From: a virus
Taxonomy: Duplodnaviria; Caudoviricetes
Strand: one strand, 5' to 3'
Virus record (IMG/VR): IMGVR_UViG_3300017778_005731
Span: 1 to 31,885 of that record
DNA length: 31,885 nucleotides
Every line of letters begins with the position of its first letter. Positions within the stretch are counted from its first letter, which is position 1. The position numbers and the translations under genes were made by a program. Below, one piece after another: positions 17 to 29,558 of this stretch. Under the pieces are notes generated by a model. The model made no database searches. It was not told the origin of the DNA and worked only from the letters and a program-made list of their open reading frames with translations.

Positions 17-220
17 GTGAGGTACAAAGCCCTCAACGATTTTACAGTTCAAGCAATTATTTTTCTGTGGTCAATTAAAGTTCCAGTTGGTCATTTCGTA
101 ATCTGCGAAACTTGCGACGCGGACGACATTGTCTTAACAAAAGAGAATGCTCGTAAGTTCCACGCCCTACATGGTGGGATGCACCGTCACCCAAGCAGAA
201 ACTTTAAGTTAATCGCTTAA
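17..220 (+). CDS. hypothetical protein (CxxC plus His-rich, possible metal binding)
   Basis: AAGGAG at 3-8 before GTG start; CETC and HALHGGMHRH in the translation; followed by a terminator. Confidence 0.65.
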   Translation: MRYKALNDFTVQAIIFLWSIKVPVGHFVICETCDADDIVLTKENARKFHALHGGMHRHPSRNFKLIA

Positions 221-228
221 GCCCATGA

Positions 229-260
229 AAAGCCCTCCGCCGAAACGCGGAGGGTTTTTC
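229..260 (+). terminator. intrinsic terminator
   Basis: AGCCCTCCGC/GCGGAGGGTT stem followed by a T-tract. Confidence 0.85.
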
Positions 261-263
261 TAT

Positions 264-292
264 TTGACAAACACCAAGAGATGCCGTAAAAT
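264..292 (+). promoter_or_regulatory. sigma70/SigA-type promoter
   Basis: TTGACA-17 bp-TAAAAT. Confidence 0.85.
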
Positions 293-336
293 TCAATTAT
301 GAAGTCAAGGGGCTTTATGAAAAGAAGGGAACTAAA

Positions 337-495
337 ATGGAAACAAGATTAGGATCCGGCGCAAGTTGCGCAAGTTGCGATCAGCAGAGTCCAAGAAAGT
401 TTGTATGGAACAACTGGCACATCTGGGCTTGTAACGTGGAGTGCGCTAACCAAGCGCGTTACGCTTACCTAGCCGTAATATTGGCTAAGAAGTAA
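337..495 (+). CDS. 52-aa Cys-motif microprotein (CxxC...CxxxC)
   Basis: Not in the ORF track; translated by hand as METRLGSGASCASCDQQSPRKFVWNNWHIWACNVECANQARYAYLAVILAKK; RBS GAAGGGAA at 324-331. Confidence 0.75.
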   Translation: METRLGSGASCASCDQQSPRKFVWNNWHIWACNVECANQARYAYLAVILAKK

Positions 496-496
496 G

Positions 497-598
497 ATGA
501 GTTACATTTATCTAAATTGCTGGCGTTGCGGTCAGGCTATGAAGGTGCAGGAAAGAAAGTACATTCACGGTTTGTGTTGCGGCAAGTGCAATAAATAA
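497..598 (+). CDS. 33-aa zinc-ribbon microprotein
   Basis: Translated by hand as MSYIYLNCWRCGQAMKVQERKYIHGLCCGKCNK; two CxxC pairs; starts 1 nt after the upstream stop. Confidence 0.65.
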   Translation: MSYIYLNCWRCGQAMKVQERKYIHGLCCGKCNK

Positions 599-627
599 CT
601 CAAATAAGAGTTGTGCTAAAGTTGAAG

Positions 628-748
628 AGTTCCGTCGAGCGGGTCTTTTCTCCCTTCGTCCTAGCTCCGGAATACGGATAGGGTAATCCCTTTAACCTAT
701 CCCTAAGCGCGTCACCTTATTCCCTTTTGGTGGCGCGTTTAGTTTTTC
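628..748 (+). ncRNA. candidate sRNA: three hairpins with UCCCUU loops, the last acting as terminator
   Basis: Stems 630-643/659-672 (imperfect), 676-682/696-702 and 703-716/729-742 followed by TTTTT; each loop contains TCCCTT; possible extended -10 TGcTAAAGT at 614-622. Confidence 0.6.
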
Positions 749-759
749 CTAAACGCGGT

Positions 760-788
760 TTGACAAGCTGGGAAATTGGTAATAGATT
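760..788 (+). promoter_or_regulatory. sigma70/SigA-type promoter
   Basis: TTGACA-17 bp-TAGATT. Confidence 0.8.
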
Positions 789-829
789 GAATAAATCAAG
801 TAATGACAAACTACAAAGAAAGGTAAAAA

Positions 830-1405
830 ATGTCGCGTTTAGAGGGAACAAAAAAAGTTGTCGTTGGACAACGAACTATTAAACAGCAGCACCAGGAGCT
901 TCCAGCTTCAGCAATAAAAACTATCGAGGGGTTAGATAATAGCTCAGATAGGGATGAATACATCAAGATGTTAAGAGAAGCTGGGTGGACACTACAAAGT
1001 ATTGCTAGTGCACATGGAGTGACTCGTGAGCGTGTACGACAGATTGCAGCAGAGCCTCGCATGTACTTTGAAGATGTCAAGTCTTTAGAAGTTCCAGCAG
1101 CTCCAAATCGAACTGTCAATGTTTTTAAGTCTATTGAAATAGAACTAGATCCTGCGGTAACTGCAAGAATGATTGAACTGTCTATACTGGCTCGGAAGCC
1201 TATAACTAACTCTGCGGAGGCGTTTGAGTTTGTTGCCTTACTGAATCAGGAGATTGAACGTGGGGTAAGTGGTATTCGCCTAGCCAAGGTGCTAGGAATT
1301 AACCACTCGTCAATTTATGCTCGGTTAGCCAGATACGGTTACCGGGAAACCAAAGCCGTGTCAAAGCACATGCAATTAAATAAAAACTTAGTCGTGGCTA
1401 AATAA
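830..1405 (+). CDS. double helix-turn-helix DNA-binding protein
   Basis: GWTLQSIASAHGVTRERVRQI (sigma region 4-like HTH) and GVSGIRLAKVLGINHSSIYARL (second HTH). Confidence 0.8.
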   Translation: MSRLEGTKKVVVGQRTIKQQHQELPASAIKTIEGLDNSSDRDEYIKMLREAGWTLQSIASAHGVTRERVRQIAAEPRMYFEDVKSLEVPAAPNRTVNVFKSIEIELDPAVTARMIELSILARKPITNSAEAFEFVALLNQEIERGVSGIRLAKVLGINHSSIYARLARYGYRETKAVSKHMQLNKNLVVAK

Positions 1406-1408
1406 CGC

Positions 1409-1437
1409 TTGACTTTGTCAGACAGGTGTGTTACCCT
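1409..1437 (+). promoter_or_regulatory. sigma70/SigA-type promoter
   Basis: TTGACT-17 bp-TACCCT with a TG extension. Confidence 0.7.
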
Positions 1438-1464
1438 TATGTCATAGGCGGAAGGGAGAATAAA

Positions 1465-1692
1465 ATGCCTAAGTTAAAGTCAGACTTTCACACTCTGTAT
1501 TACAGTGGTTTGGAAGGCGCAACAATAGTACGGTTCGTAGAAATGCGAGGCGATGAATTCGGTGGAAAACCATTCCCCGTATTTTTAGTCAAGTTTGCTG
1601 ATGACTCAATTGGTGAAATTGAAATCTCGCAGGACGAGGAAGGAAATGGCGGAGGGTTCGTATTCGGACTCCCAAGCCCTTTCAGCGAATAA
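1465..1692 (+). CDS. hypothetical protein
   Basis: Start moved from 1426 to ATG 1465 because RBS GAAGGGAGAA lies at 1451-1460 and the promoter overlaps 1426; ends SQDEEGNGGGFVFG. Confidence 0.8.
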   Translation: MPKLKSDFHTLYYSGLEGATIVRFVEMRGDEFGGKPFPVFLVKFADDSIGEIEISQDEEGNGGGFVFGLPSPFSE

Positions 1693-3020: not shown

Positions 3021-3773
3021 ATGGGAAACTTTGTATCTTTATTTGCAGGTGTTGGCGGCTTTGATTTAGGTCTTGAAGCTGGTGGACATAAATGTGTTGG
3101 TCAGGTTGACATTGACAAGAAGTGCCTCGCCGTATTGGAAAAGCATTGGCCAGATGTGCCAAAGCATAATGATGTAGTAACAGCAAAGGAATGGGCTGAT
3201 GAGCAAAACCTCGTTGGAAAAGTTGACATTGTCTGCGGAGGATTTCCGTGTCAAGACGTTAGCGTTGCAGGAAAAAGGGCTGGGCTGGCTGGTGCCAGGA
3301 CTGGACTCTTCTTTGATGCACTCTCTTTCGCGACGCATGTCAAGGCAACAACTCTCATCCTGGAGAATGTCCCAGGACTTTTATCAAGCAACAACGGACG
3401 CGATTTCGGAGTCGTCCTCACTAGTCTGGCCGACGCAGGGTATAGCGACATCCAATGGCGCGTTCTTGATTCGCAGTTCTTCGGAGTCCCCCAGCGTCGC
3501 CGTAGAGTCTTCATTGTCGCAAGTCTTGGAAACGGAAGTTTCCCCGAAATACTCATTGAGCGCGAAAGCAGCCGAGGGGATCATCCGGCGGGCGGAGCGT
3601 CGCGGGAAAACATTACCAGAGCCGCTGAAGAAAGCGCTACAAACAGTAGTGGACGCAGCAGCAACGAGCAGCGAGTAGGTAGCTTCGAGCTGTGGACTTT
3701 CCCAGAAGAAGATAAATCACCAGCTCTTTCTGCTCGGAGAGCTAGTGACATGCTGCAGTATCCAGCTGAGTAA
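3021..3773 (+). CDS. C5 cytosine DNA methyltransferase, N-terminal catalytic part (motifs I-VIII)
   Basis: SLFAGVGGF (I), GGFPCQD (IV), ILENVPG (VI), PQRRRRVF (VIII). Confidence 0.95.
   Translation: MGNFVSLFAGVGGFDLGLEAGGHKCVGQVDIDKKCLAVLEKHWPDVPKHNDVVTAKEWADEQNLVGKVDIVCGGFPCQDVSVAGKRAGLAGARTGLFFDALSFATHVKATTLILENVPGLLSSNNGRDFGVVLTSLADAGYSDIQWRVLDSQFFGVPQRRRRVFIVASLGNGSFPEILIERESSRGDHPAGGASRENITRAAEESATNSSGRSSNEQRVGSFELWTFPEEDKSPALSARRASDMLQYPAE
3199..3678 (+). CDS. overlapping +1-frame ORF inside the methyltransferase (possible second subunit)
   Basis: Open 159 codons; C-terminus SLSQVLETEVSPKYSLSAKAAEGIIRRAERRGKTLP resembles the L-x-D-I-L-E...KYYLS segment that follows motif VIII in many C5 MTases; start uncertain (3199, 3337 or 3367). 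Confidence 0.6.
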   Translation: MSKTSLEKLTLSAEDFRVKTLALQEKGLGWLVPGLDSSLMHSLSRRMSRQQLSSWRMSQDFYQATTDAISESSSLVWPTQGIATSNGAFLIRSSSESPSVAVESSLSQVLETEVSPKYSLSAKAAEGIIRRAERRGKTLPEPLKKALQTVVDAAATSSE

Positions 3774-3785
3774 GGTAAAAATTCT

Positions 3786-4373
3786 ATGCCAAGCTGGTAT
3801 GTGAAAACTATTCGCAGCGGAGCTCGAGCTGCAGATGGCTCTCTTCCGGCGGATGTTTGGACTGAAGGAGTCGTGCATCCAACATTAAATGTGTTTGATG
3901 TTGGGGATACACGAGCTGTAGTAATAGTTGTTGAGGATGAAATGCCAGCTTACCCGATTCAAGGAACAGTAATTGGTCGCAAAGATACTGCTGGACCACA
4001 AGGAAAAGGTCATGGGGAAGCAGATGACCCAATGTACACGCTTGACACAACAGGAGGTCACGCCGTGGCTATGACAGAAGATAATGAAACAATCGTGTTC
4101 CACCCACACAGAACAGATGGATTCCGTATTCAGGGTGACACAGTCAATACGCTTACGGCTTTTATGGGTACGGGAGGATTAAATACGCCAATGGTTGCTA
4201 CAAGTAAGGTTCGCCGCCTCACACCAGTTGAGTGCGAAAGGCTGCAGGGATTCCCTGATGGCTGGACTGCGGTAGACGAAAAGACAGCTGATTCCCACAG
4301 ATACAAGCAAATGGGTAACGCGGTTACTACCAATGTGGTTGCTTGGGTAGGCAAAAGAATACCCGTTTTATAA
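3786..4373 (+). CDS. C5 cytosine DNA methyltransferase, C-terminal part (TRD repeats plus motifs IX-X)
   Basis: PTL/YTL/NTL TRD-type segments, RRLTPVECERLQGFPDGWT (IX), YKQMGNAV (X); same frame as 3021. Confidence 0.92.
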   Translation: MPSWYVKTIRSGARAADGSLPADVWTEGVVHPTLNVFDVGDTRAVVIVVEDEMPAYPIQGTVIGRKDTAGPQGKGHGEADDPMYTLDTTGGHAVAMTEDNETIVFHPHRTDGFRIQGDTVNTLTAFMGTGGLNTPMVATSKVRRLTPVECERLQGFPDGWTAVDEKTADSHRYKQMGNAVTTNVVAWVGKRIPVL

Positions 4374-4451: not shown

Positions 4452-4481
4452 TAAAGTAATCCTTAAGAGAGGGAGAACATA

Positions 4482-5069
4482 ATGACAAAAAACACAAATA
4501 CGAAAGTTAAACAAACAACTGGCGGAATTGAAGCTCCTGACTACTCAGACTTCATTGACGGTATGCCTTTATGGAGTAATGTCCTTGACGGGCTCTGGGT
4601 AGGCGGAACAGATAACAACGACACCCTAGGTGATCATCGCGCGTGGAGCGGTAGACAAGCCTTCATTACGCCTGAGTTCTTTGACACGGTAGTAACTATG
4701 TACCAATACGCCAATCCAGTTGATTGGTTTGTAAAGGAATACCGCTACTGCATCTATGACTCAGACGTTAGCCACTTCGACTGGAGCGAATTATTCGATA
4801 CAGCCAAATTTGCACACAAGGAGTGGAAGGCTGGGAAGCGCTTGTTGATTCGTTGCCAAGCAGGGCTCAACCGTGCTGGACTTGTTACGGCTCTTGTGCT
4901 TATCCGTGAGGGCTACTCACCTGAAGAAGCAATCGCTTTAATCAGGAAGAAGCGGAGTTCTATGTCTCTATTCAACAAGCAGTTCGTACAGTTCCTTAAG
5001 ACAATTGACGTTGAGATGTGGCGTGGAGATGTTTATATTCCCCGCGTGTCGGACATTGACACTAACTGA
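4482..5069 (+). CDS. dual-specificity/tyrosine phosphatase family protein
   Basis: GLWVGG, LLIRCQAGLNRAG (CX5R P-loop), EAIALIRKKR; RBS GAGGGAGAA. Confidence 0.9.
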   Translation: MTKNTNTKVKQTTGGIEAPDYSDFIDGMPLWSNVLDGLWVGGTDNNDTLGDHRAWSGRQAFITPEFFDTVVTMYQYANPVDWFVKEYRYCIYDSDVSHFDWSELFDTAKFAHKEWKAGKRLLIRCQAGLNRAGLVTALVLIREGYSPEEAIALIRKKRSSMSLFNKQFVQFLKTIDVEMWRGDVYIPRVSDIDTN

Positions 5070-5917: not shown

Positions 5918-5952
5918 AGCGCCGGTGTGAGATCAATGGAAGGACGACACCC

Positions 5953-6216
5953 ATGACAGCAATAAATAAACTGCGACAGGTTAGCCTACGCATCGTTGCG
6001 GTATTCGCTGCTTCAGGACTTTCAGTCATTGGAGCGGGTGCACTTGCTGGAGTTGAACTCTGGCAAGCGGTGTTTATGGCAGGTGTAAGCGGAGTAGCTA
6101 CGGTAGTCGAAGGACTATCCCGTGCCTATCTCAAAGACGGACAACTATCAATGGAAGAAATTGATGAAGTATTCGTTGCGGTAGATAAGAAGAATGCTCA
6201 AGCCACAGGCAAGTAA
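5953..6216 (+). CDS. two-TM membrane protein (holin-like topology)
   Basis: Two hydrophobic segments and a charged C-terminus; no endolysin nearby to confirm a holin role. Confidence 0.6.
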   Translation: MTAINKLRQVSLRIVAVFAASGLSVIGAGALAGVELWQAVFMAGVSGVATVVEGLSRAYLKDGQLSMEEIDEVFVAVDKKNAQATGK

Positions 6217-6275: not shown

Positions 6276-6485
6276 TTAGCAGTGGCAGTTGTCACTACTG
6301 CAACAAGGCGAAGTGTCTTCAACGGTTACGGTATTCTCGTATCCACACTGCTGGCAATCAACTTCAATGTCGTTACCCATTGAACTGAATGAACTTGTTT
6401 CTATGTCTGTATTACGGTGTGCACACTCACTGCACTCAAAACTTACGGTGTAGTCGTAAGTCTCTGGGTAGTCGTAGTATCCCAT
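6276..6485 (-). CDS. zinc-ribbon protein with a Cys-rich tail
   Basis: CSEC...CQQC plus PCCSSDNCHC; RBS AAAGGGAGAA. Confidence 0.8.
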   Translation of the reverse strand: MGYYDYPETYDYTVSFECSECAHRNTDIETSSFSSMGNDIEVDCQQCGYENTVTVEDTSPCCSSDNCHC

Positions 6486-6516
6486 TTGCTTTCTCCCTTT
6501 CCTTTACGGTATCTCT

Positions 6517-6810: not shown

Positions 6811-6857
6811 TTGCTTCTCCCTTGTTAGAACTTCACACAACTCTGTGTGTTGTCTTT

Positions 6858-6886: not shown

Positions 6887-7322
6887 GTCAATAGCACTAG
6901 ACACACACTTATTAACTTCTCAAACACAATAAGAATCTCAAACACATAGGCAGCTCAGATGCAAATAAATTTATTAAATTATTTTTGCATTGCATCAGCT
7001 TCAGATGACGCGCAGCTGGGAAGCTGAAGAAGCAAAGAAATTTAGGAAACGATTTCATCAGAGTCCCGTATATAGCGCAGCCGTCTTGCAGGCCAAATCC
7101 AAATAAAGTAACTGTTCACTCTTTCTGTCAAATCGTTCAATAATGACCGACCTCAAGTAGTTATAAAATAAAGTAACCGAAAGGGTAACTTCTTGTCCTA
7201 CTCCTCCGATCCATATGCCCATCTATGGACCTGCGACTGGTGTAAAAAACATTATGTAGTTCCGCAACTTGCCAGGGACTGCGAGGATAAACACTTAAAA
7301 GAAAACTCTGTACAATGGGACA

Positions 7323-7793
7323 ATGAAGTCGCTACCTGATTACGAAATTAAGTATCTAAATGCGTTTCCCTACCCGCCCACGCGCCGCCTAGCAACCCTT
7401 CGGGCAAAAGGGTGGTCTCTGTCTGTTCTTGGTAAGGCGCTAAACCCTCCACGTTCTAAAGCTACTATCCATAATTGGACTGCAAACGAGGGAATTTTTG
7501 ATTTTACAGAGCCAATCCCGCTTCCTGAAAAAAACCCACTTCCAGCCCATTCCCTGGCTCCTCTAGTTCCTTTAGAAACTATTCCTGAACTTCAGCGACT
7601 AGCCCCTCTAGCCCAGAGATACCGCTCCAGAACCCCTAAAACTTCAATTTATGCCGAATCTAACGAGAAATTAACAGAATTAGTGGTTTCGTTATATCTA
7701 AGAGGTGTCCCAGTTAGTGCTATTGCAAAGGCAACACAGGTCTCTAATCGGGCAATGTACCGTAGAGTCAACAGAGGATTAGGAAAACTTTAA
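7323..7793 (+). CDS. double helix-turn-helix protein, paralog of 830..1405
   Basis: LRAKGWSLSVLG...TIHNW and RGVPVSAIAKATQVSNRAMYRR; TACAAT -10 box 6 nt before the ATG suggests a leaderless mRNA. Confidence 0.75.
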   Translation: MKSLPDYEIKYLNAFPYPPTRRLATLRAKGWSLSVLGKALNPPRSKATIHNWTANEGIFDFTEPIPLPEKNPLPAHSLAPLVPLETIPELQRLAPLAQRYRSRTPKTSIYAESNEKLTELVVSLYLRGVPVSAIAKATQVSNRAMYRRVNRGLGKL

Positions 7794-11895: not shown

Positions 11896-14800
11896 GTAAT
11901 AATAGAGATTCAGTTATGTCTCAAGTAAAACTAATTCAGTTGCAGGTTTTTGCTGCTATTGAAGAGGCAAACGCTGGTGTTCCCTTTGAGCGTCGCGTAA
12001 CTCCTGGCTCTGCTCTTACTGTTGTTAAGCGTTCCCTAAACTCAACTCGCAGTCTGCCTTTTGAGGTACGCGAGTTTCACGCAATGCGAGAACTTTCTGC
12101 CTTTATTAATCTTGTTCAGAAAAACAAGTTTAGTGACACTTTTACTAATCACACTGATCTTTTAATTGTTGCTCACCCCTCTTCTACTCGCAATCACGGG
12201 TTAGCCGCTTCTGCGCTCTCTAAAGCAAGGCTGCGATGGATTCTCTCTGATGCTCGTATCTCTGAACAGGCTCTCCCTTTACTTGCTTCCGTATATACTT
12301 CTTCTGAAACATCCGCAGAGTATAGATATGCAGTAGTTCGTCTTGCCTCTCTGCCTAGAGGTTCTTACCCATTAGAAGCACTAACTGCAGCTTTTGGCGA
12401 TGGAAACTCTAGACTTGCTCGCAGCGCTCGTGCAATGCTCCAGCGCCGTGACCGCAAGGGCCGCTTCGCGTTCCAAGGCGGCGGTGCAAGTGCATTAGTT
12501 GAGCGTGCAAATGGTCAAGTACAACGCCTCACAGGCCGCGTTGTGTCGCAAGGCGAAAACGGAGACACCGTACGTATTCAGCTTCCTAACGGTCGTTTAG
12601 TAGATATTCCTACAGATGGCGCAGAATTTATTAAGGCTGTTATTGGAAAGAATAAAGATGGCTTTAGTGGCGTTAAGGCTGACTACAAAGCTGGCGACAT
12701 TATTCTTAACGAAGAAGATTTACAATTCTTTGATGCTCCTCATGGGTTTCGCAAAGACGAGGATTACAACGGACCTGGTGTTAAGTTCACTGATGATGAA
12801 TACGATGTTGTAAAAAATGGCAAAGACTTTGCTATTGCTCGCCGCGACAATGGGTTAGGAGTAGGTAATGCAGATAACTGGGCTGATGCCCAGAAGATGA
12901 TTTACGATGATGAGCCTATTGCTGATGCTTCAGCCGGCCGCGAACCTATTGCTCGTTTGACTCAAGAGCAAATTGACAGAATGTACGACGATCCTAATTT
13001 TGACCCTAAAGATATTCTTACCCCTGGAGGGGCTGTCTCTGATGAAAGTGCTGGTCAAGACGAAACACCTGAAGCAGGTGAGTTTAAATACAACTACCCT
13101 GAGGGCGCGTATCAACTTCCTCTAGATGTTAAGTATGCTGACGGATTTTTTGACCCAGCAAATGACAGCAGTGATTTTACCGATGACCCTAAAGAACTTG
13201 CTCAGAAGTTTTCTAGTGAGGCTTTGGTTAGTGCTCTTCGTAAAGGCCTGCTCCCTGGTGATGGTAGCAAGGCTAATGGCGAAGGTGTCCTGCAGTTTAA
13301 AAATAAAGAACCAATCCCTGTTGAAGCGTTATATCTTGCTCTTGAAGAAAAAGGCAACAACGCAAAACTTGAAGTAGCAAAAATTTATGATGCTGCCAAC
13401 GGCGACAAAAAGAATCAAGAATCCTTAGCTCGTCTAGAGGTTAAGCCTATCCCGTCCAAAATCGATGGTTCTTATGTGGACTCAGAGGGAGTTCGTCGCC
13501 CATGGAACTACGAACCTGACACTAAAATTACTCAGGGGACTCCTGCTTCAAAAACTCCTCTAGAAGAATCTACAAAAGTAGCACTTCTAGGACCTGGACC
13601 TGTCACAGAAGAAGAAGTTGCAGTAGAAGTTGCACGTCGCAAGGCATTGACTCCGACAATGATTACGGACTCCAAAGGTAACTTGGTTTATAAGAGTTCT
13701 TACAATGACCCTGACCCAGATGTTGTTCGTGAGCAACTTAAAGAATTAAAAGCTTCGCGAGCTAAAGCAACAGATGATACTCCCACACCAGACGTTTCAG
13801 AATTAGAAGAGCAACCAACAGAACCTCCTGCAGCGCCTATGCGCAAGGGTCAGGTTTCTCCTGCCGGTGATTGGCAGTGGTATCCAGCAATTGGTATGGG
13901 CGGCCAAAGGCTAGAAGGCTTCTGGGGAAGAACAGAAAAAGGCATTGCAAAACTTCCACCTAAAGAAGCAAAGGCTCCTTATGTTCCTCGAGAGCCTGTT
14001 CTTCCAGATGAAATCGGCGGTGGCTGGGAACCAGGTAATGATTTAGACTACGTGGGCAAAGGACCTGTCTACGAAAAAACAATTGACGGTGTTACCTATA
14101 GGTTTATTCAAAACTCTGATGGCGCTTGGGATGTTGTTGAGATGCGCGGCGGGGAACGCTACAACGTTGGCGGACCTAACCAAGTAGATATTGCTGACCC
14201 TGCCGTTTTTGATGACAAAATTGCTCAGATTGTTGATGCTAAGCAGAAGTTAAATCGTAATGCTGTTAAGGAACTTCTTAGCCAGTGGGGGTTTGACAAA
14301 GAAGTTATAGATTTAATTGATGAAGCCGACGCATATGAGATTCTTGCTGCTGTCACGGCTGACCCTGCATATGCTGATCTACAAGCCAAGCATGAAAGAT
14401 TCTTAGCTGGAGAACAAAATGCTCCTTTCCGCGCTGAATCAAAAGCCTTCTTAGATATCAACAGTAACCTCGACAAAATCAGGGACAACTATGTTCCTGA
14501 TGATGAGCCAGATATTGCCGACACTGTTTCCGATGTTAGAGGCGGTATCCCAACTTCCTCAGAGATTCAGAGAATGCTTGATGGCGAAGATATTGGTTCT
14601 GAAGATGAGATTTCTGGAGATGCTCCCTCTGAGGTGCTACCTAGAGCTAAAGCAGTACCTGGAGAAAAGAAAGAACAAGATCCAGAAAAGCGAAACGATA
14701 TTCTAGAAGAACTTAATGTTTTTGCTGAACGCGCTAACAAAGCCTCAGACTTGATGGATCAACTTCTTGGTAACTCGGATTTAGATGAAGGTATGGACAC

Positions 14801-17800
14801 CAACCGCGCTCTTAGCGCCGGCGCATCCGTAAATCTTGCCGAAGATATGTTAGCCGAAGCTATGGTCAGTGTTGACGATCCTTCTGTTCTTGATAACAAT
14901 ATTCAACAGGCTGGATGGCACTTAACACAAGCCATTGCTACCCTTGCCGATGTTGATCTCCCTGAAGCTCAAGGAGTTCGCAGCGAGATTCTAGAACTTC
15001 GTAATGAACTTGAAACCTACCGTGGCAATCTTGAAGCAGAACTTAAAAAAGATAAAATATCTATTGATAAACTTGTTAAGCACATGCTTGTCGATCAACA
15101 CTCAGAGATTAAAGTTGAAGACATAAACCCTCTTGTTGATGGCGACAAAGAAGAAACTCCAGAAGTTCCTGCAGAAGCCCCCGTAGAAGCTCCGGCAACT
15201 GGTAGACCTCGCCGTGTGCGAAACAACAATGTTGCTGCTAATCGTCGTTGGCAAGCCCGCTTCGGAATCAAACCACCCGTGTTCTACAAAAAGAACCGTG
15301 GAATGTTCTACGACATCAATGGCGTGCCAATAAATGTTGGCGATAAGGTGACTCACAATAATCCTGACAAGGATGAGAAATACGGCGAAGGCGTAATCAT
15401 TTCCCGTATCCCAAATCTAGGTCGCTGGCGCTTAGGCAGAGCCGGAGAACAAGTCAAGGTTGATTACGCTTCTTATGTTTGGGTTCAGTTCGCTAACGGT
15501 AAAAAAGCAAAACTTGCAACTCGTATGCTTATCAACAAAAATCCTGATTCTGTTGAGAATCCAGCTAACGTAGTTAAGCCTGTACTTGATGCTGAAATGC
15601 CGCCACCAGATGTTTATATTGATGACTGGAAGAAGTTTGGCAAGGCTCTTGAAGAATTTGGCGTTGAGCCAGGCAAAGATGCTCGCGGTAACGATGGGTT
15701 CCAGGCAGATGCTGGTAACGCTCAGCAAATGGTTATTTCTAAAGATGCTGATGGTGACTATGCCGTCTATCTAAAAGAAGAAAACATCTGGCGTAACCGT
15801 CAGGTAGAGCCTTTGTTTGTTTCTAAGAATCTTCCAGAAGCTGCTAACTACTTTATTGCTGAAGTTCATAATCGTCGCTACCAGACTGACTTCCCAGCCA
15901 ACCCAGTATGGGCGGGCGAGAAAGCACCTACAGCAGTTCCTAATCCAGAAACTAATGTTGTTGAAGTTCCTGAAGCCGGTTCTGTAAGTAATGCCGGTAT
16001 GCCTAGTGTTGTTAACCTTGACACCAGTGGCAAGTTTGAAGATCTACAAAAGCAAATTCAAGATGCTATTGATAGTGGTCAAAAGATTGCATTCAACTAC
16101 AAGGGTGAAGACCGTCTAGTCACCCCTAAGCGCATTTGGACTAACCCTAAGAATGGCAACATTAATCTTGATGCTGTTGGTGAAGATGGTTTCAAGGTCT
16201 ACACCATTGTAAATATGGAAAACCCTGATAGTCCTGTTGAACCAACTCCTATTCCTGAACCAACTCCTATTCCTGAAGATGTTGCTCCTCAGGCAAGCGA
16301 TAAGCCTTTCCTAGAAGCAGTTCCTCTTGAAGATCAAATGGCTAACGCTAAAAAAGATTATGAAAATTTAGGCAATGAAATTGTTGACAAGGCTGTAGAT
16401 GGCTTAGGCGAAAGCAACTCAGAGGTTGCTGAACTCTATAAACTCCGCGATGAGGCATTAAATAAAATAGTTAACCTTAATAAGCAGATCAAAGAACGCG
16501 ATGCAACCCCTTCTCGTGATCCTCAAGAGCGTATGGATGCACTTAAGGATGAGTATAAGGCTCTTGGTAACGAAATCCTTGACCTTGAAATTAGTACCAG
16601 TCCTGACCGCGAGGCCATCTCTAAAAAGCAAGACCGCATGGCCGAGATTGTAAAGCAAATGGAGCCACTTCGCGCAGAAGTCAACAAGGATGTAGTTCCT
16701 GTAGCTGACGAACCTAAGGCAGACAATCAAGATCCAGATGCAGCCCGCGCCAAGCAACTTGAAGATATTGTTGCAGAATTTAACGACACTCCTGAAAACG
16801 CTGAGCAAGATTTTGAAATCATCAATAATGATGGAAAATCTGTGAGTGTCTTTGATTCTAGGACTGGTAGACAATTTGAAATTTCTTGGGACGAAAATGC
16901 TAACATTTGGGCTAGTAACCCTGTAGGTTTTGAAAGAAATGTGGATCGTAAATTCTCTCCTAGTTTAAATGAAGCAGTAGATACTGCTGTTACAGATTTA
17001 AGCAAAGAACGCGAAGGTGTAGATAAGTTCAAAGACTTCAAAGAATATGTTGATGGTCTTGTCAATGAACCAGAATTCCAAAAGGAATACGACTTTAATG
17101 ACTTAGGTGGAGATGGAATTCTTCGCGTTCAAGATAAGAACAACAAGAATCAAGCAAATATTGAATGGGATGAGGATGCTCAAGGATACGGAGTTGACTT
17201 CCGTCCACTTGATTTAGGCAAAAAGGAAGTCTTTGCAGACATTCAAGAAGCCGGTCAATACGCTATGGATGTTCTAGACAAGAAACGGGACATTCCAAGG
17301 CCTGGAAAGCTGATGGTAGAGGCAGCAGAAAAAGAACTTCTTGAAGGAGCACCGCCTGTTGTTAAAGGCGATGCTTTTGATAAATTAGATGATGGAAATG
17401 CAGTAGCAGATTTGTTAGGCGCACTTGGAGCCAAACTTCCTAAATTCCGAAATACTCGCGGGGAAAGGAATGCTCGCTGGGCACATCGCTATATTGATGA
17501 AGCCGCTGCGGAATTCCGTACACAGTCTATTGACAAGGCTGGTATATCCGAACTAAATCAGGCTCTTTCATATGCAATCCGTATTCCTGGAACCGAACTA
17601 AGAGATTCTGTTGTATCTGAGATTAAAAGACTTCAGGAAAATCTCGTTGTTAAACGTGAAGTGCTTAAGCAAAGACGTATTGTAAAGCTCAATAAAAGGT
17701 ATGAAAACTCTCTTCCAAAAGGTTTAGTACCTACTAACCCTGCTGATCTTGATATAGAAAAAGCCTTGGCAATTGCTAAAGAATTTCTAGAAATACTTCC

Positions 17801-20748: not shown

Positions 20749-21036
20749 ATGTCCGCATCACAAAACTTATATCAAGGTCTTTTTGCTAGTATCAACGAAA
20801 AAGACGAGACCACCGTTACTTATCTGTTCTATGCAAATCCTACAACTTACCTAAAGCGGTATAATAAAGAATGGATTCCAGTAGACAACATTGATGATGA
20901 AAATACCAATGGTGACGAACAAATCCCTGTGACTGATGAGTTTATTGAAGCCTTTGATCAATCACAAGAGGATGGCGTTCCACTAAGTATTGATGATGCC
21001 AATGAGTACCTACGAGAGCTGGAGCCCTGGGAGTAA
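20749..21036 (+). CDS. hypothetical acidic protein
   Basis: 95 aa; TAATG coupling to the protease gene. Confidence 0.8.
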   Translation: MSASQNLYQGLFASINEKDETTVTYLFYANPTTYLKRYNKEWIPVDNIDDENTNGDEQIPVTDEFIEAFDQSQEDGVPLSIDDANEYLRELEPWE

Positions 21037-24000
21037 TGAAGTTCATCGGTCGTATCGAAAATAATGTTCTTTTTGCGTCTAACAGCGTTGGCGTTGTTGT
21101 AGACGAAAAAACAAATATGGTTGTTGATACTGGCTCTGTTCAAGCATTTATCTCGTCTAATAACTGGAATCTTAATTTAGAAGAGCCAAACGATGTTTCT
21201 CTGGAACTTGCTACAGCATCAGTATCAGACTTAAATATCCACGTTCTTTCTAGTACTCGTATGTACACAATCCCAAAGGCTGCTCAAACAGAGGCCAAAC
21301 GCGCACTTGAATGGCGTAAAGAGCATAAACGTGGTGGCACTCCTGTTGGAGTAAACAGCGCTCGCACTCTTGCCGCCGGTGGTCAAATTGGTATTGAAAA
21401 AGTTCGTCACATTGCAAAGTATTTCCCTCGTCACGAAGTTGATAAAAAGGGTAAAGGGTATAAGCCAGGAGAAGATGGATTCCCGTCAAATGGTCGCATT
21501 GCGTGGGCTCTTTGGGGCGGAGACGCTGCTCGTCGTTGGGCTAGTGCAATCGTTGAGCGCGAAAATGCTCACGAAAAAGAGGCCGCTACTTTTGAAGAAA
21601 TTAAAGCAGTAGATTTTTCTTACTTTAATTCAATTAATGAACCAGAATTCACAATCCGTGTACAAGATAATGGCGTTGGGGTTGACCGCCTCTACATGAC
21701 TAGTGATGACGGAGCCACATCGGTATGGGACGATGGAGTCTGGTCTAACCTTGGAATCTTCACTAGTTCGTTTTCTGATATTGACTCAGAACTTGACACC
21801 GAGCCAGACGGAATTATTCGTTACTACTTCCCAGTAGATTCAGAAACTGCTGTAGTTGCTTCTGCACTTTTTGATAGCACTCCTTTTCTAATCTCAAGCA
21901 TTGACAATTTTAATGTTGATGAGGCCGAGTTAGTAGCCTTTGCTATTGGGGAAGTTGATTGGTCATACATTGACTTCTTAACTTTTGCTGAGGGCGATGG
22001 AAACTACACTCCAGAAGAACGTTCAGAGAATGTTAAAGATCAGTACCGAGACGCAACTGGTCAGTTTGCCAAAAAAGGTTCAACAGTAATCATTGGTAAA
22101 AACCCTGCAGCTTCTGGAACTGTTGTAGGTATTAACCCTCAGGACTCAACTGTAAGAGTTAAACTGGCTAATGGAAATGAAGTAAATGTTCCAGGAGATA
22201 CTACAAGTCCTGCTTCTGCATCTACTGCTAGTTATAAATCACAGGTCACTAATGTAGAACGTTTCGATGTTTCTGGAATCTTAGGGGAGCCTCGTGACTC
22301 AAGCAACCCTGCAATTGCTGGTCGTATTCCAAACCGCCTACCGCCTCTAACCGGCGCCAGCATACAACAAATGATAGGTGACTGGTCCTCTTGGGTAGCG
22401 GATCAAAGAACTTCTTTTGAAAGTACTAAAACACAAATTCCTCAGATTAAAGTTAGTACTCAAGAGGATGACATTCTCGCTCCTAATGCTTACAACGACC
22501 CGTACTTACGTAATTGGTTGGATCAAAAAACTGGTAAAGGTAAGAAGTCAACATACCCTAACCGCGGTTGGTACAACCCTATGCGCACTGACGATGTTGA
22601 ATCAAAGAAAGATGCTAAAAAACTTGGTGGAATTACAGCCGCTGGAGAAGCAAAGAAACTTACCCCTAAAACTTCAGATGTTCCAGTAATCTATATGGCT
22701 ATTGTTGCTCAAGATGACCCACAGGCCGTAATGGATCTAGTTTCCTTGGTTCCTACAACAGATCAATCTACGCAACCTGTGGCATTCTCTCGCAAGGACG
22801 GCAAGTGGGTAGAAAATAGTCAGATTATCTCTGACCTAAACAGCCCTACCCCGCCGCCAGTTGTAGTTCTAGATGATGAAACTCTTCTTGAGGTTCTTTC
22901 GCAGATTGATCCTAAAAAGGATGCACCAGTAACTGCTTCTATCTATAAAACTTTATCTTTGCTCTGGGACACAAACGGAGATTTAATAGGCGTTACTGCT
23001 GCAGGCGGAGCAGATCGTAATAAAGGAAATGCTGAAAAACTTCGGCGCTACTGGACTGTTGGCAAGGGCGGCGCAAAGATTCGCTGGAATACCGGTGGAG
23101 ATTGGACTCGCTGTGTACGTCAACTTTCTAAGTACATGGGCCCTCGTGCCAAAGGCTACTGCGCCCTACGCCACAAAGAAATGACAGGCATGTGGACTGG
23201 AGACAAAGAACATCGTCAAATGTATGGAAGTAAGAAAGCATTTACCACCTACAGCGATGACTTTATCCGCTCTAGTGAAGAAGTTATTTCTTTTGCCGAG
23301 TTAAGTGCCCAAGCAGCCGAGGCTAGAAGCAGAATTGTTGCATCCGGTGAGCCTATGGAATACGGCGCAGAATTCTATATGCCTTTGGTTTTACCAGAGG
23401 ATACTGAATCTGGCGATGGACGTAAGTTTGCTAAGGGTGCTATCTCTATGAGAGAACTTCCGCTTCCTTTAATGTGGCAGATTAAAACTGCTCAGGGGCA
23501 TGACGGCTCTGTAGTTGTTGGTCGTATCGACAAAATGGAACGTTTAGAAGCTGGCGGTGTTGGAAATGCCTATGGCGTTTTTGACTCAGGCGATTATGGC
23601 AAAGAAGCAGAGCGTTTAGTACGAGGCGGATTCATCAGAGGAATCTCCGCTGATTTAGACAAATTTGAAGCAGATGAAGAAGAAGCAGCTTCTGACGAAG
23701 ATAAAAAAATTGGCACTGGAAAGATTAAAATTACTAAAGGACGCATTATGGGTGTCACTTTAGTTCCTAAGCCAGCTTTCCAAGAGTGTAAAATAGTGCT
23801 ACTAGAGGATATGAAAAATCCACAGGAGGAACAAGTGATCCCAGACGGCGAATATGTAGAGGATCCTGCAGAGCAGGACACCGCGGCTTTAGTCGCGTGC
23901 GCCGCAGTAGTGGCCTCTATCCCAGTAACCCCCCCATCTTCATGGTTTGAAAAGCCAGAACTAAATGGACCTACACCACTAACTGTTACAGACGACGGTC

Positions 24001-26165
24001 GCGTGTTTGGTCATATTGCTGCTTGGCATGTAGACCATATCGGTATGGCATTTGGTACTAAGCCTCCTCGCTCAAAGAGCAAGTACTCTTACTTCCACAC
24101 AGGCATTATTCGTACCGAAGAGGGAACAGACGTTCCAGTTGGTCAACTAACTCTTGCTGGTGGACACGCATCCCTTGAGGCCTCAGCCCGCGCTGCCGCG
24201 AAGCATTACGACGACACTGGCTCAGCGTTTGCTGATGTTCATGCCGGCGAAGATGCTCACGGTATCTGGGTAGCCGGTGCGCTTCGCCCAGCAATCTCAC
24301 CAGAGCAAGTACGCGCTATTCGCGCTTCTGCTCCATCAGGTGACTGGCGACCAATTCAAGGCTCACTTGAACTTGTTGCTGTATGCCAAGTAAATGTTCC
24401 AGGATTCCCAATCGCTCGTGCCCGTGTTGCATCAGGTTCTGTTATGGCTCTTGTTGCTGCTGGCGCTCGCGTTTTGGCTCAGATGAAGTCTGATCCTGTG
24501 GCAGAACTTGCTGCTCGTATTGAGCGCCTTGAACAAGAAAAAATGGAACCATTTATTGCTGCTGCAGAAGATGCTCGCGCTCGCTTTGCTGCATTAAAGA
24601 GCGAGTTTATTGTTTCTGAAGAACCAATGACTGCAGGTGGCGGATGCGGATGTTGCCCTGCTTGCTCATCAATGTGTCAAGGTGAATGTTGCTCTAAGTG
24701 CACCTATCCGATGGGTCATAGCGACGCTGGGAACTCAGTAGAGCCATTAATGATTGGCGTTCTTGAGCGTTTATTGTCTGACGTTGTTTCTTTCTACTTC
24801 CGTGCTCACGGATATCACTGGAATGTTAAGGGTCAAGACTTCTCTCAGTACCACAAACTATTCAAAAAAATATATGAAGATGCATACGAGTCAATTGATC
24901 CTATGGCAGAGAACATCTTAAAACTTGGATACAAGGCTCCTTTCAACTTAGGCGAGTTTGTGTCTATGCGTTCAATCCAAGATTCCGAAGGAGTTACTAT
25001 GACTCCTCAGGCTTTGACTGCTGATTTAGCCCGCGCCAATGATGTTTTAATTGACGAACTAAAAGCTACATTTGATGTAGTAGAGGCCGCTAATGAGCAA
25101 GGAATCGCAAACTTTATTGCAGAGCGTATTGACTCACACATGAAGTGGTCTTGGCAATTAAAATCCTCTCTAGTACCTGAGGGCATGGAAATGGCTGAAA
25201 ATGAGTCTCAAGAAGACTTTTTTGTGACAGTTTTTTCAACACTAGAAGAGCAAGGTTTAATCGCTGCTGGCGGTCCTTCTGAAGATGTTCGTATGAAACT
25301 TGCTGAAACTGGTGAAGCCCTTAAAGACGGTTCATACCCAATCAGAAATGTTTCCGAACTGAAGAAAGCAATTAAAGCATACGGTCGTTCCAAGCCAGGA
25401 GATCGCGCAAAGGTTCGTAAGCACATCTCTAAGCGTGCTCGCGCATTGAAGCACCCAGAATTGATCCCAGATGAGTGGAAGAGTCTTTCCGTTAGTGGTA
25501 TGGAACTCTCTATTGCAGTTGCTGATCTTCGTAGTCGTTTAAACACAAGAACTATTACTGCAGCAGGCCAAGAAATGGAATCGGATGCAACCGAAGAGGC
25601 TTCCGGTGGTGTTGACCCAAAAGTGCCAGCCTCTAAAGAGGCTTCTCGGTCTGAAGGTATCTATACTGCCAAAACTCAACCTAGAGACGCTCAGGGCAAG
25701 TTTCGTACAGTACTAGCACGCCTTAAACAAGATTTAGGTGTTGCATCACTAGACAGCGTTGCTGAAAAAGTAGAAGAAGCAGAGAATCTAGACAATGTTG
25801 GAGACTACTCTGAGTCCGCAAGGGCTGCTAGTGATGTTATTGGCATTGTTGATCGCTTAGAAACTGGCGCTTTAGATGCAAAACTAGTGGAAAACGTACG
25901 AGCTGGTACAAAAGCGTTGGGCGAAGCAATTGCAAACCTACCACTTCCTTTCCAAGATCAATCACAAAAGATTCGTTTTAGCGATGTTCCACCTGCTCTA
26001 GCCAAGTTAATTGAAGACATGCTTGAGAAGGTAGAAAATAAGATTGGCGTAGAGGACTCTGCGGAAGCCACCACAAAATTAAAGGCATTTATGAGTGGAT
26101 CAGACGTATTTAGCCAAAGCGAAATATCTAGCGAAATGAATAGGCTTCTTAGGCTTCTAACCTAG
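21036..26165 (+). CDS. capsid maturation (prohead) protease fusion protein with an embedded Dps/ferritin domain
   Basis: SGDGRKF...LPLPLMWQ...GHDGSVVVGRI...GISAD...GVTLVPKPAF (HK97-type protease His/Ser pattern); GRVFGHIAAW...SGDWR...VNVPGFP domain; HGYHWNVKG...YHKLF...IDPMAEN (Dps); directly upstream of the capsid gene. Confidence 0.88.
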   Translation: MKFIGRIENNVLFASNSVGVVVDEKTNMVVDTGSVQAFISSNNWNLNLEEPNDVSLELATASVSDLNIHVLSSTRMYTIPKAAQTEAKRALEWRKEHKRGGTPVGVNSARTLAAGGQIGIEKVRHIAKYFPRHEVDKKGKGYKPGEDGFPSNGRIAWALWGGDAARRWASAIVERENAHEKEAATFEEIKAVDFSYFNSINEPEFTIRVQDNGVGVDRLYMTSDDGATSVWDDGVWSNLGIFTSSFSDIDSELDTEPDGIIRYYFPVDSETAVVASALFDSTPFLISSIDNFNVDEAELVAFAIGEVDWSYIDFLTFAEGDGNYTPEERSENVKDQYRDATGQFAKKGSTVIIGKNPAASGTVVGINPQDSTVRVKLANGNEVNVPGDTTSPASASTASYKSQVTNVERFDVSGILGEPRDSSNPAIAGRIPNRLPPLTGASIQQMIGDWSSWVADQRTSFESTKTQIPQIKVSTQEDDILAPNAYNDPYLRNWLDQKTGKGKKSTYPNRGWYNPMRTDDVESKKDAKKLGGITAAGEAKKLTPKTSDVPVIYMAIVAQDDPQAVMDLVSLVPTTDQSTQPVAFSRKDGKWVENSQIISDLNSPTPPPVVVLDDETLLEVLSQIDPKKDAPVTASIYKTLSLLWDTNGDLIGVTAAGGADRNKGNAEKLRRYWTVGKGGAKIRWNTGGDWTRCVRQLSKYMGPRAKGYCALRHKEMTGMWTGDKEHRQMYGSKKAFTTYSDDFIRSSEEVISFAELSAQAAEARSRIVASGEPMEYGAEFYMPLVLPEDTESGDGRKFAKGAISMRELPLPLMWQIKTAQGHDGSVVVGRIDKMERLEAGGVGNAYGVFDSGDYGKEAERLVRGGFIRGISADLDKFEADEEEAASDEDKKIGTGKIKITKGRIMGVTLVPKPAFQECKIVLLEDMKNPQEEQVIPDGEYVEDPAEQDTAALVACAAVVASIPVTPPSSWFEKPELNGPTPLTVTDDGRVFGHIAAWHVDHIGMAFGTKPPRSKSKYSYFHTGIIRTEEGTDVPVGQLTLAGGHASLEASARAAAKHYDDTGSAFADVHAGEDAHGIWVAGALRPAISPEQVRAIRASAPSGDWRPIQGSLELVAVCQVNVPGFPIARARVASGSVMALVAAGARVLAQMKSDPVAELAARIERLEQEKMEPFIAAAEDARARFAALKSEFIVSEEPMTAGGGCGCCPACSSMCQGECCSKCTYPMGHSDAGNSVEPLMIGVLERLLSDVVSFYFRAHGYHWNVKGQDFSQYHKLFKKIYEDAYESIDPMAENILKLGYKAPFNLGEFVSMRSIQDSEGVTMTPQALTADLARANDVLIDELKATFDVVEAANEQGIANFIAERIDSHMKWSWQLKSSLVPEGMEMAENESQEDFFVTVFSTLEEQGLIAAGGPSEDVRMKLAETGEALKDGSYPIRNVSELKKAIKAYGRSKPGDRAKVRKHISKRARALKHPELIPDEWKSLSVSGMELSIAVADLRSRLNTRTITAAGQEMESDATEEASGGVDPKVPASKEASRSEGIYTAKTQPRDAQGKFRTVLARLKQDLGVASLDSVAEKVEEAENLDNVGDYSESARAASDVIGIVDRLETGALDAKLVENVRAGTKALGEAIANLPLPFQDQSQKIRFSDVPPALAKLIEDMLEKVENKIGVEDSAEATTKLKAFMSGSDVFSQSEISSEMNRLLRLLT

Positions 26166-28409: not shown

Positions 28410-29558
28410 ATGGCAAAAGATCTATCAATCACGCCAGCTCACCCCTTAACTCCGTACCCTTTTGGGGTCCTGAGTGTCGCCAGCGTTTCTCAATACTCAG
28501 AGTCAGAGGATCACTGGGCTCGCTATGCGGCCCACGAGTTTGACTCAGACGCATTTGCTTTGCGCCTACTGACCATTAATGACGACGATGTCACTAATGG
28601 TGAGTTGTACGACGGAACAACTAAACAACGTTTTACTAATTATGTTCCTTTTGGGATTGAAGTTGAAGACTTCTCCTCTACTTTTAGCCTTCCTGCACAA
28701 GACCGTTTTAAGCGTGTTGAAAAGATTATGGAAGCATCAACCCAGAAAGCCATAGAAAGTGAACTATGGCTTGGTTCTGCTGCTCAGCACTTTACTGGCT
28801 ACACCTCAAGTGTTGTATCTAGCGCAACTGTGGCATCAAACTTTGCTACCGTAACAACAGCAACTGCTCACGGGTTTAAAGTTGGCGACATTGTTACTGT
28901 ATACAACTTAACTTCTGCAAGTGGTTACGATAACTACGTGATTACTGTTGCAACCGCAACAACATTTACTTTTGCTTACACTGCTTCAAACGGTGCCGTA
29001 ACACTTGGCACAAGTCCTATTGCTACTCTAAGCAACAACTATCTTGTAAAAGAAAAAGCATCTACAGATGTAACAGTCACTGCTGGTGGAGATTCTCCTC
29101 GTGTAGCACTGGCTCGTCTAGAAGGCGCACTTGCAGGTGGTCCTGCAGGTTTACGCGGTGTTATTCACATGTCACGCCGTATGGCTGGTATTTGCTATGA
29201 CTTCCTAGAGCGCATGGATTTTAATGCTCGTCTTGATATGGATGATATAAATAAAAAGGGTCAGATTCTCATAACCGCACTAGGAACACCAGTAATTGTG
29301 GGTTCTGGATACACAGGAGTTGGTCCAATTGGACACGCTAACCGTGCAGTAAGCAATACAACCGAGTGGATGTTTGCTACTGGTTATGTAGATGTACACC
29401 TTGGCGAAACCAAGGTAGTGAATGAAAATTTGGCTCAAGGCATTACTGCTTCGTCCAATACAAATGACATGCGCATAAAAGCCGTTCGCGCAGCGGCTGT
29501 CCACTTTGAACCGGACTGCCATTACGCAGCACGGGTCGACTTTTCAGCATCCGTTTAG
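28410..29558 (+). CDS. capsid-associated structural protein (minor capsid/decoration-like) with an inserted beta-rich domain
   Basis: Lies after the MCP; GVIHM, TALGTPVIVGSGY, WMFATGYV, NTND motifs; TAHGFKVGD insert. Confidence 0.65.
   Translation: MAKDLSITPAHPLTPYPFGVLSVASVSQYSESEDHWARYAAHEFDSDAFALRLLTINDDDVTNGELYDGTTKQRFTNYVPFGIEVEDFSSTFSLPAQDRFKRVEKIMEASTQKAIESELWLGSAAQHFTGYTSSVVSSATVASNFATVTTATAHGFKVGDIVTVYNLTSASGYDNYVITVATATTFTFAYTASNGAVTLGTSPIATLSNNYLVKEKASTDVTVTAGGDSPRVALARLEGALAGGPAGLRGVIHMSRRMAGICYDFLERMDFNARLDMDDINKKGQILITALGTPVIVGSGYTGVGPIGHANRAVSNTTEWMFATGYVDVHLGETKVVNENLAQGITASSNTNDMRIKAVRAAAVHFEPDCHYAARVDFSASV

Follow-up and report, generated by a model that had tools for sequence, protein, structure and literature searches.

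The window, by which we mean the whole stretch of 31,885 nucleotides of DNA from an uncultured phage analysed here, carries at positions 629–747 of its plus strand an element of three hairpins that is a real, previously unclassified phage RNA family. The fold reaches –48.8 kcal/mol (z = –6.78) and none of 200 shuffled sequences folded as well. From its sequence and that of its relatives, the element is probably, on balance, a small RNA that would pair in trans with the ribosome-binding sites (RBSs) of the phage's own early mRNAs and damp their translation.

Architecture of the three-hairpin element

The original prediction had placed the motifs TTCTCCCTTC (648–657), TCCCTTT (687–693) and TTCCCTTTT (720–728) in the loops of three consecutive hairpins. 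The motifs lie at these positions, and the fold of 629–747 puts them in loops. The extent of 628–757 proposed with them was too long; the element instead stops at a U-tract near 747, and positions 760–788 are the promoter of the next gene. Its parts are as follows.

612–622, plus strand: predicted promoter of the element itself, an extended –10 box of the pattern TRTG-N-TARRST (hexamer 617–622) without a TTGAC –35 box
629–673, plus strand: hairpin 1; predicted +1 is G629 at the stem base; loop 646–657 (UUUUCUCCCUUC) with the invariant core CUCCCUUC
676–702, plus strand: hairpin 2; loop 683–695 with CCCYUU; stem rewritten between clades
703–747, plus strand: hairpin 3 and U-tract; stem 703–716/729–742, loop 717–728 (UUAUUCCCUUUU), U-tract 743–747

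In all 18 copies of the element (see below) the extended –10 box is followed by six variable nucleotides and then by a conserved +1 G at the base of stem 1, and at least four T follow stem 3 in 15/18. The TRTG-N-TARRST pattern, which was derived from the element copies themselves, occurs 26 times in the 786,542 nt of the seven carrier contigs and once in the window. Hairpin 3 with its U-tract is predicted to be a terminator that also exposes a seed loop; it is missing from the listing of the terminator scan because the loop limit of that scan was 8 nt. A TTGAC promoter lies downstream of the element in 18/18 copies, and at L197 a strong hairpin stands between the upstream ORF and the element's promoter. 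This layout looks like the anatomy of a stand-alone small RNA of ~119 nt with an extended –10 promoter, which could be active from the start of infection. A proposal that this promoter belongs to the same class as the late-operon promoter was unsupported and was dropped.

The phage and its early region

The capsid protein encoded in the window shares 64.6% identity with its counterpart in Actinomycetia phage DSL-LC01 and ~50% with those of large Microbacterium phages. PHROGs matches in the window include portal, capsid, HslV, methyltransferase and HTH genes, and WhiB-like motifs are present in contigs carrying the RNA element. We infer an actinobacterial host. The first 7 kb of the window consist of small genes in promoter-terminator cassettes with TTGAC promoters, and from promoter type and gene size we infer that they are the early region. 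Three of its features flank the element.

264–292, plus strand: early-type sigma-70/sigma-A promoter (TTGACA-17-TAAAAT)
497–598, plus strand: 33-aa CWRC...CxxC zinc-ribbon-like micro-ORF, the constant upstream neighbour of the element
760–788, plus strand: early-type promoter of the HTH gene 830–1405, which sets the 3′ limit of the element

A transcript from the promoter at 264, covering a 52-aa ORF and the 33-aa Cys ORF, would read into the element, which would then form an mRNA 3′ end; the terminator scan of the window (loop limit 8 nt) listed no U-tailed hairpin between 292 and 629. The CWRC...CxxC pattern is found upstream of the element in 17/18 copies and is unmatched in L205, and at L248 the micro-ORF is interrupted by a stop while the RNA there stays intact. 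The 33-aa ORF had no match in Pfam or PHROG and gave weak zinc-ribbon leads only.

Several other features of the region were observed. The leader that follows the promoter at 264 (298–322) forms a short hairpin with an AAGGGG loop ahead of the RBS, and in relatives such leaders (GCAAGGGGC) often precede early genes, in many cases. The HTH gene at 7323, at the head of the run toward the portal gene, looks leaderless (window 7288–7325): a –10 box TACAAT is followed by 6 nt and the ATG, an arrangement kept in G046–G049 and G001. The DNA methyltransferase is split over two consecutive ORFs (3021–4373), the first of which is overlapped in a different frame by a 159-aa ORF (3199–3678). The 1709-aa ORF at 21036–26165 is a long head-protease ORF and its part at 24754–25200, with an HWNVKG...IAER motif, seems to resemble Dps/ferritin. 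In the early regions of G046, G047, G048 and G001 (example contigs L329, L324, L337 and L341), the asymmetric motif AACTGAA(A/C)TTTTTT occurs ~14–30 times per contig in both orientations. The window has it at 817–829, 1809–1821, 2951–2963, 3769–3781, 5467, 5691 and, on the minus strand, 2558–2573, and it is found even within the HTH gene. In the G046, G047, G048 and G001 clades it adjoins the extended –10 box of the RNA on the upstream side; at this position G045 and G049 have GGAAAAAATT and the window has AGGTAAAAA. We take the motif to resemble a stoperator-like or activator site.

The fold is conserved by compensatory changes in 18 copies

Pattern scans detected 13 viral and 21 metagenome loci, which reduced to 22 distinct cores; four of these (L242, L251, L252 and L261), none of which matched model R2, were dropped before counting, and 18 true copies including the window's own were retained. 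Most of the 106 matches in one pattern scan and of the 31 in another were repeats or did not fold. A structure-fitted alignment of the 18 copies has 95.7% of its 601 cells paired and two-sided changes at 19/34 pairs, a level reached by none of 500 shuffles, and slid controls on the same model-fitted alignment paired 32–45%. Two-sided changes occur at 7/13 pairs of hairpin 1, at 6/7 pairs of hairpin 2 (86% of cells paired) and at 6/14 pairs of hairpin 3 (100% of cells paired). A plain, unguided MAFFT alignment recovered hairpin 3 only and misaligned hairpins 1 and 2, for which reason model R1 was abandoned; all three hairpins appear in single-sequence folds of the copies. Folding and covariance analysis across related phages, which the original prediction had put forward as one of its checks, thus upheld the fold. 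The loops, whose lack of conservation would have spoken against the idea, are conserved: the loop-1 core CUCCCUUC is invariant in 18/18 copies, with an unpaired probability of 0.87–1.0 in every one. UCCC is present in all three loops of the window, and the unpaired probability of the loops is 0.72–1.0 across the 18 copies. Invariant positions also occur outside the loops, for example in the GU-N-GAG bulge region of stem 1.

The Rfam search suggested at the outset returned no family at gathering or E-value thresholds; the best weak match, rli32 (16.3 bits versus a cut-off of 100), and an Enterococcus-1 hit were rejected as chance-level. A tRNA/tmRNA search of the element found none. A coding function was likewise rejected, as the six copies checked share no open frame and 1-nt indels occur. 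The carriers are the nearest relatives of the window (portal identity 74–87% versus 64–67%). Model R3, run over 49 related records, found the six known carriers and one weak match, and none of three near-complete records matched. Model R2 was unmatched in the cultured relatives DSL-LC01, Cece, Pumpernickel and Atuin in a search run without a positive control. The 42-kb regions of Cece, Pumpernickel and A3Wally had neither a uniform RBS nor a convincing multi-loop element; those of Cece and Pumpernickel contain one plus-strand intergenic C/U-loop hairpin each. Among prokaryote genomes, none of 49 pattern matches matched R3 at E ≤ 1 in a search that found its positive control and excludes close copies only, and blastn of window positions 200–1500 matched none of the annotated phages. 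G032 holds two three-hairpin elements with C-rich loops (L442:11930–12036 and 14774–14884; remote model matches of 29.3 and 28.4 bits), possibly distant family members. Both matches were lost in a larger search, and remote copies thus may exist. A literature search found no earlier description of such a phage RNA, which may sit unnamed in the 2023 viral structured-RNA survey (PMC10690425).

Loop 1 matches early RBSs in the window

Loop 1 is, as originally predicted, the exact 10-nt complement of 1451–1460, the sole other copy of that 10-mer in the window. The exact 10-nt match likewise claimed for 6490–6499 needs a small correction: the minus-strand sequence there, AAGGGAGAAA, pairs over 9 nt with the 10-mer at 648–657 and over 10 nt only with 647–656. 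Near-complements expected at ~325, ~4470 and ~6815 were found at 7, 8 and 9 nt, respectively. The predicted targets are listed below.

1451–1460, plus strand: RBS of the 75-aa ORF at 1465; 10 nt to loop 1; –17.7 kcal/mol, the best non-self duplex in the window
324–331, plus strand: RBS of the 52-aa ORF at 337; 7 nt to loops 1 and 3; possible cis target too
4470–4477, plus strand: RBS of the dual-specificity-phosphatase-like gene at 4482; 8 nt
6490–6499, minus strand: RBS of the 69-aa Cys-rich ORF starting at 6485; 10 nt with 647–656
6815–6823, minus strand: RBS of the GTG-start ORF at about 6810; 9 nt

The sequence AGGGAGAA occurs five times in the window (1.17 expected; 0/100 shuffles reach five). 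One of these sites is loop 1; each of the remaining four is the RBS of a gene that comes first after a TTGAC promoter. Portal, capsid and major tail genes do have the GGAG-type RBSs (AAGGAG/AGGAG) first ascribed to the portal, capsid and tail genes, but the split is not clean, and some late RBSs pair with loop 1 nearly as strongly as the early sites. The 98-aa gene before the portal gene has the RBS GAAGGGAC (loop-1 duplex –13.9 kcal/mol), and the capsid RBS forms a bulged duplex of –13.7 kcal/mol, versus –14.1 to –17.7 kcal/mol at four early sites.

Loop-complementary RBSs are concentrated in the early regions of carriers

RBS usage was compared in 35 related contigs, in which genes were called by a simple script, with approximate starts and hand-set early borders; p-values are optimistic, since neither genes nor contigs are independent of one another. 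RBSs of the AGGGA type in carriers are concentrated in the 20–30 kb of dense promoters that surround the RNA and are near-absent from the replication and structural regions. AAGGGAGA was RBS-positioned in 39/45 occurrences in carrier contigs (407 kb) versus 22/55 in non-carriers (2.15 Mb). Complementarity to loop 1 of at least 8 nt was found at 48/314 early RBSs versus 2/268 other RBSs of carriers, and at 6/173 early RBSs of non-carriers (in three contigs). Because early RBSs are generally stronger, the test was repeated on strong-SD genes only, using the three loops of each contig's own element; matches of at least 7 nt were observed for 113/225 early-region genes versus 7/82 others, with the same direction in 7/7 carrier contigs.

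The RBS class drifts among the phages under an invariant loop 1. Early genes with loop-1 matches of at least 8 nt number 2/61 in G046, 2/52 in G047 and 1/24 in G001, and the L025 ortholog of the best window target has GAAGGAGAA, with one G lost. The canonical anti-SD also pairs more strongly with early RBSs than with others in 10/10 genomes, and G003, a non-carrier without this RNA family, yet has 20/45 strong early RBSs that fit the window loops. Loops and early RBSs could both track host RBS usage. Set beside the 13-bp Start-Associated Sequence (SAS), the AGGGA RBSs, though clustered in the early region, show less uniformity.

More distant relatives build hairpins that mirror their own RBSs

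G003 has a different early RBS consensus and C-rich hairpins of its own. One element among them consists of three hairpins (L366:1820–1945) and follows a Cys-rich ORF; its loop fits best to G003's own RBS plus spacer (rank 1 of 35 contigs at 8 nt). Tracking of loops and RBSs was examined with 72 candidate hairpins, 27 of them strong and sense-oriented, in a post hoc test whose thresholds were chosen after looking at the data. The own genome ranked first at 8 nt for the window, G049, G003, W01 (DSL-LC01), G041 and G027; G002, G005, G042, one W01 loop and one G003 loop were misses. Permutation over nine units gave p = 0.002–0.004 at 8 nt and 0.007–0.04 at 7 nt. A motif-blind count detected 38 anti-SD loops among 2230 intergenic hairpins versus 20.4 in shuffles (maximum 34 in 300 shuffles).

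A further comparison used positions fixed beforehand, the 120 nt after AAA ATPase and VWA orthologs. VWA 3′ ends complemented their own RBS over 6.95 nt versus 5.42 nt for orthologous RBSs (19 units, p = 5e-5), and AAA 3′ ends over 5.65 versus 4.90 nt (20 units, p = 0.0013); the control set of 1730 other genes had no effect (4.43 versus 4.40 nt). The matches extend past the SD core into gene-specific bases, up to 12 nt, and anti-SD loops are present at 15/48 AAA/VWA ends versus 60/1928 control ends. Because complementarity to the own RBS exceeds that to the orthologs' at these ends, we conclude that phages of this family build loops mirroring their own RBSs; adaptation to the host would by itself be a poor explanation of this. 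These hairpins of the relatives are other elements than the window RNA and may act in cis.

Some of these 3′ structures were seen in particular clades. A conserved, structured element that follows immediately on the VWA gene in the carrier clade contains UCGUCCUUCCA in G045 (L336), G047, G048 and G049, with a shorter match in G046. UCGUCCUUCCA is the 11-nt complement of the RBS of a holin-like gene in the window (gene at 5953; RBS at 5937–5947), so that a possible role of the element, read from this complementarity, is that of an RNA brake on the holin-like gene. A second hairpin with a UCCCUU loop directly follows the AAA ATPase stop codon and is complementary to that gene's RBS over 7–8 nt. 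In DSL-LC01 (L370 ~11173; OQ999401.1 about 30173), a long hairpin after VWA has a loop complementary to the commonest RBS of that genome. The AAA ATPase hairpin was located as follows.

L335:16700–16790 (G045); G047 at 55835, minus strand; G048 at 29253, minus strand; G049 at 13382, plus strand: AAA ATPase 3′ UCCCUU hairpin

Proposed mechanism and alternative explanations

We favour trans-acting repression of the phage's own early mRNAs over action on host or competitor mRNAs, a cis brake, protein binding, a minus-strand sponge and a plain terminator, in that order, and hold it to be somewhat better than an even call. The element's own promoter would give rise to a small RNA of ~119 nt, which would probably also be supplied as the 3′ end of the upstream early transcript and would accumulate in stable form during infection. 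Its three exposed C/U loops would pair in trans with the RBSs of many of the phage's early mRNAs and block translation, loop 1 covering AAGGGAG and the A-rich spacer ahead of the start codon and loops 2 and 3 covering AAAGGG/AAGGGG variants. Most replication and structural genes, with RBSs poorly matched by the loops, would be spared, and the RNA would curb early protein synthesis after a delay, much as T4 does with RegB, which works by cleavage. The original idea of a switch silencing an AAGGGAG class of early mRNAs is partly borne out, insofar as covariation, promoter, early bias and loop/RBS tracking point to a discrete plus-strand anti-SD RNA; the class itself is wider than AAGGGAG, and leakier. 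What favours repression in trans, of many early mRNAs, is that the upstream gene and its RBS vary under a constant loop 1 and that the RBS of the constant neighbour is poorly matched.

Instead, the chief targets of the RNA might be G-rich RBSs in mRNAs of the host or in early mRNAs of related, competing phages; its fit to the phage's own early genes would then be a by-product of shared RBS usage. An invariant loop 1 over a drifting phage RBS class is what a fixed outside target would produce, and actinobacterial 6C RNA is described as repressing host mRNAs via C-rich loops (PMC6486639). However, a phage that silences its host in this way should keep its own RBSs off the loops, which only the non-early genes do; the CCC of the loops mismatches AAGGAG-type SDs; and in relatives the loop matches reach past the SD core into gene-specific bases. 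We consider this explanation unlikely. Doubtful, and ranked one place lower, is a cis-acting 3′-UTR brake of the icaR type, in which the tail of the upstream early transcript would fold back on its own RBS. The lack of a listed terminator between the promoter at 264 and the element, the 7-nt match of the first gene's RBS and the AAA and VWA 3′ hairpins of relatives, which track their own gene's RBS, fit such a brake. Among the copies, however, the upstream first gene and its RBS vary (best match 5–9 nt) while loop 1 is constant, the Cys ORF as the constant neighbour has an RBS matched over 3–6 nt only, the internal promoter is kept in 18/18 copies with an insulating hairpin at L197, and three seed loops suit several targets. 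A fixed cis partner for the window RNA is therefore unlikely.

Repeated similar loops, as present here, are typical of protein sponges, and the plus-strand C/U loops might bind a pyrimidine-binding factor, a host RNase (as a decoy) or the Cys micro-protein instead of mRNA. The invariant features outside the loops would be in keeping with protein binding, as would the constant presence of the Cys ORF, loosely like that of CcaF1 beside CcsR RNAs (PMC8034643). Protein binding leaves the early-RBS bias and the loop/RBS tracking across clades unexplained, however, and the RNA outlives its broken Cys ORF at L248; we regard it as improbable. Very improbable is a minus-strand RNA that serves as a GGGA-loop protein sponge, which had been offered as an alternative to the anti-SD reading. 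GGGA does occur in the complement of each loop, but promoter and U-tract are both on the plus strand, G-U pairs outnumber A-C pairs 38 to 4 in the plus-strand reading, the sense strand is the more stable in 18/18 copies, and the minus strand of 620–770 has a z of only –1.86. The loops on the predicted transcribed strand are C/U and not the GGA of CsrB/RsmY-type sponges. A terminator, 3′ stabiliser or DNA-level structure without any pairing role would account for hairpin 3 and the U-tract at the expected terminator position, yet it is scarcely credible given that the 12–13-nt loops are invariant while their stems are rewritten, that two further hairpins are present and that the element has a promoter of its own; RNA is favoured over DNA-level structure because one-sided stem changes go to G-U.

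Comparison with known regulatory RNAs

By analogy of loops and layout, the element likely works like LhrC, 6C and cuckoo RNAs but is a member of none; 6C and cuckoo RNAs, named as analogues in the original prediction, hold as such, and membership fails in each. The 6C RNA has two loops with runs of about six C. Window loops are C/U 12-mers with CCC only, on three hairpins and phage-borne, and runs of C longer than this are confined to loop 2 in some of the copies; Rfam model RF01066 (6C) gave no match to the element in a search whose control rang only in Corynebacterium, below the cut-off. What the two would share is C-rich loops on G-rich RBSs and, given the probable host, an actinobacterial setting; in 6C, loops L2 and L3 are described as pairing with G-rich RBSs independently of a chaperone (PMC6486639). 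Cuckoo RNAs (CcsR/AbcR-like, Alphaproteobacteria) consist of 2–4 hairpins side by side, the stems of which vary while an anti-SD-like loop is shared (PMC4615179). The element has the same arrangement of adjacent hairpins with conserved loops on variable stems, and a small protein gene lies upstream in one cuckoo case (PMC8034643). In contrast, the motif CCUCCUCCC given as defining for cuckoo RNAs (PMC4615179) is absent in 18/18 copies, and these RNAs are alphaproteobacterial whereas the window phage is related to actinobacteriophages and probably shares their hosts.

Closest in plan is LhrC of Listeria, for which three UCCC sites, one in the terminator loop, and no need for Hfq are reported (PMC4132741). 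The element resembles this UCCC-loop class (RsaE, RNAIII) in its length (~110–120 nt) and its three redundant UCCC sites, one in the terminator loop (PMC4132741), and several unpaired UCCC sites including the terminator loop were indeed found in it. SD-region pairing without Hfq, proposed for LhrC (PMC4132741), is predicted here from complementarity. It differs in having no Rfam-level homology to LhrC, RsaE or rli32, in being phage-encoded and in that its predicted targets are early genes of the encoding genome. In icaR of Staphylococcus aureus, a 3′-end UCCC motif complementary to the SD leads to 5′/3′-UTR pairing (PMC3868564). This fits the AAA and VWA 3′ hairpins of relatives; the window element, in contrast, has its own conserved promoter and lacks a fixed cis partner.

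Among phage systems, T4 RegB is an endoribonuclease that inactivates the phage's own early mRNAs at the SD (PMC3014915). The window RNA is predicted to be likewise a phage product directed against the phage's early mRNAs at the SD, by RNA pairing rather than as a protein nuclease. The P1/P7 c4 antisense RNA blocks a phage RBS region with loop sequences (PMC12197685) and has one dedicated target operon, whereas a class of many early RBSs is predicted to be hit here. The SAS of cluster K mycobacteriophages and cluster EF Microbacterium phages are unusually uniform RBS motifs, confined to non-structural genes (PMC3203893, PMC7302621), for which Pope et al. left an RNA or a protein ligand open (PMC3203893). 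They differ from the early RBSs of the window in sequence and in phage group.

Implications for the timing of phage gene expression

To our knowledge, the small RNAs with anti-SD loops described so far are stress regulators of bacteria and act on host genes, and the known phage device that shuts early mRNAs at the SD is a protein nuclease, RegB. A broader proposal, which we offer tentatively and at less than even credence from the sequence comparisons above, is that these phages may sort their mRNAs into temporal classes by RBS sequence and that one small RNA with three seeds would read this code and shut the early class, as an RNA-only counterpart of RegB. The RNA would then be the freed, promoter-bearing form of the RBS-mirroring hairpins found across the family, and an RNA ligand would be suggested for the SAS of actinobacteriophages. 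The element is predicted to be a compact, probably chaperone-free translational repressor, open to reporter tests including AAGGGAGAA reporters, and it makes testable whether the uniform RBS repeats of actinobacteriophages bind RNA or protein. A three-seed phage small RNA tuned to the phage's own early RBS class would, if true, be a different way of timing the lytic cycle.
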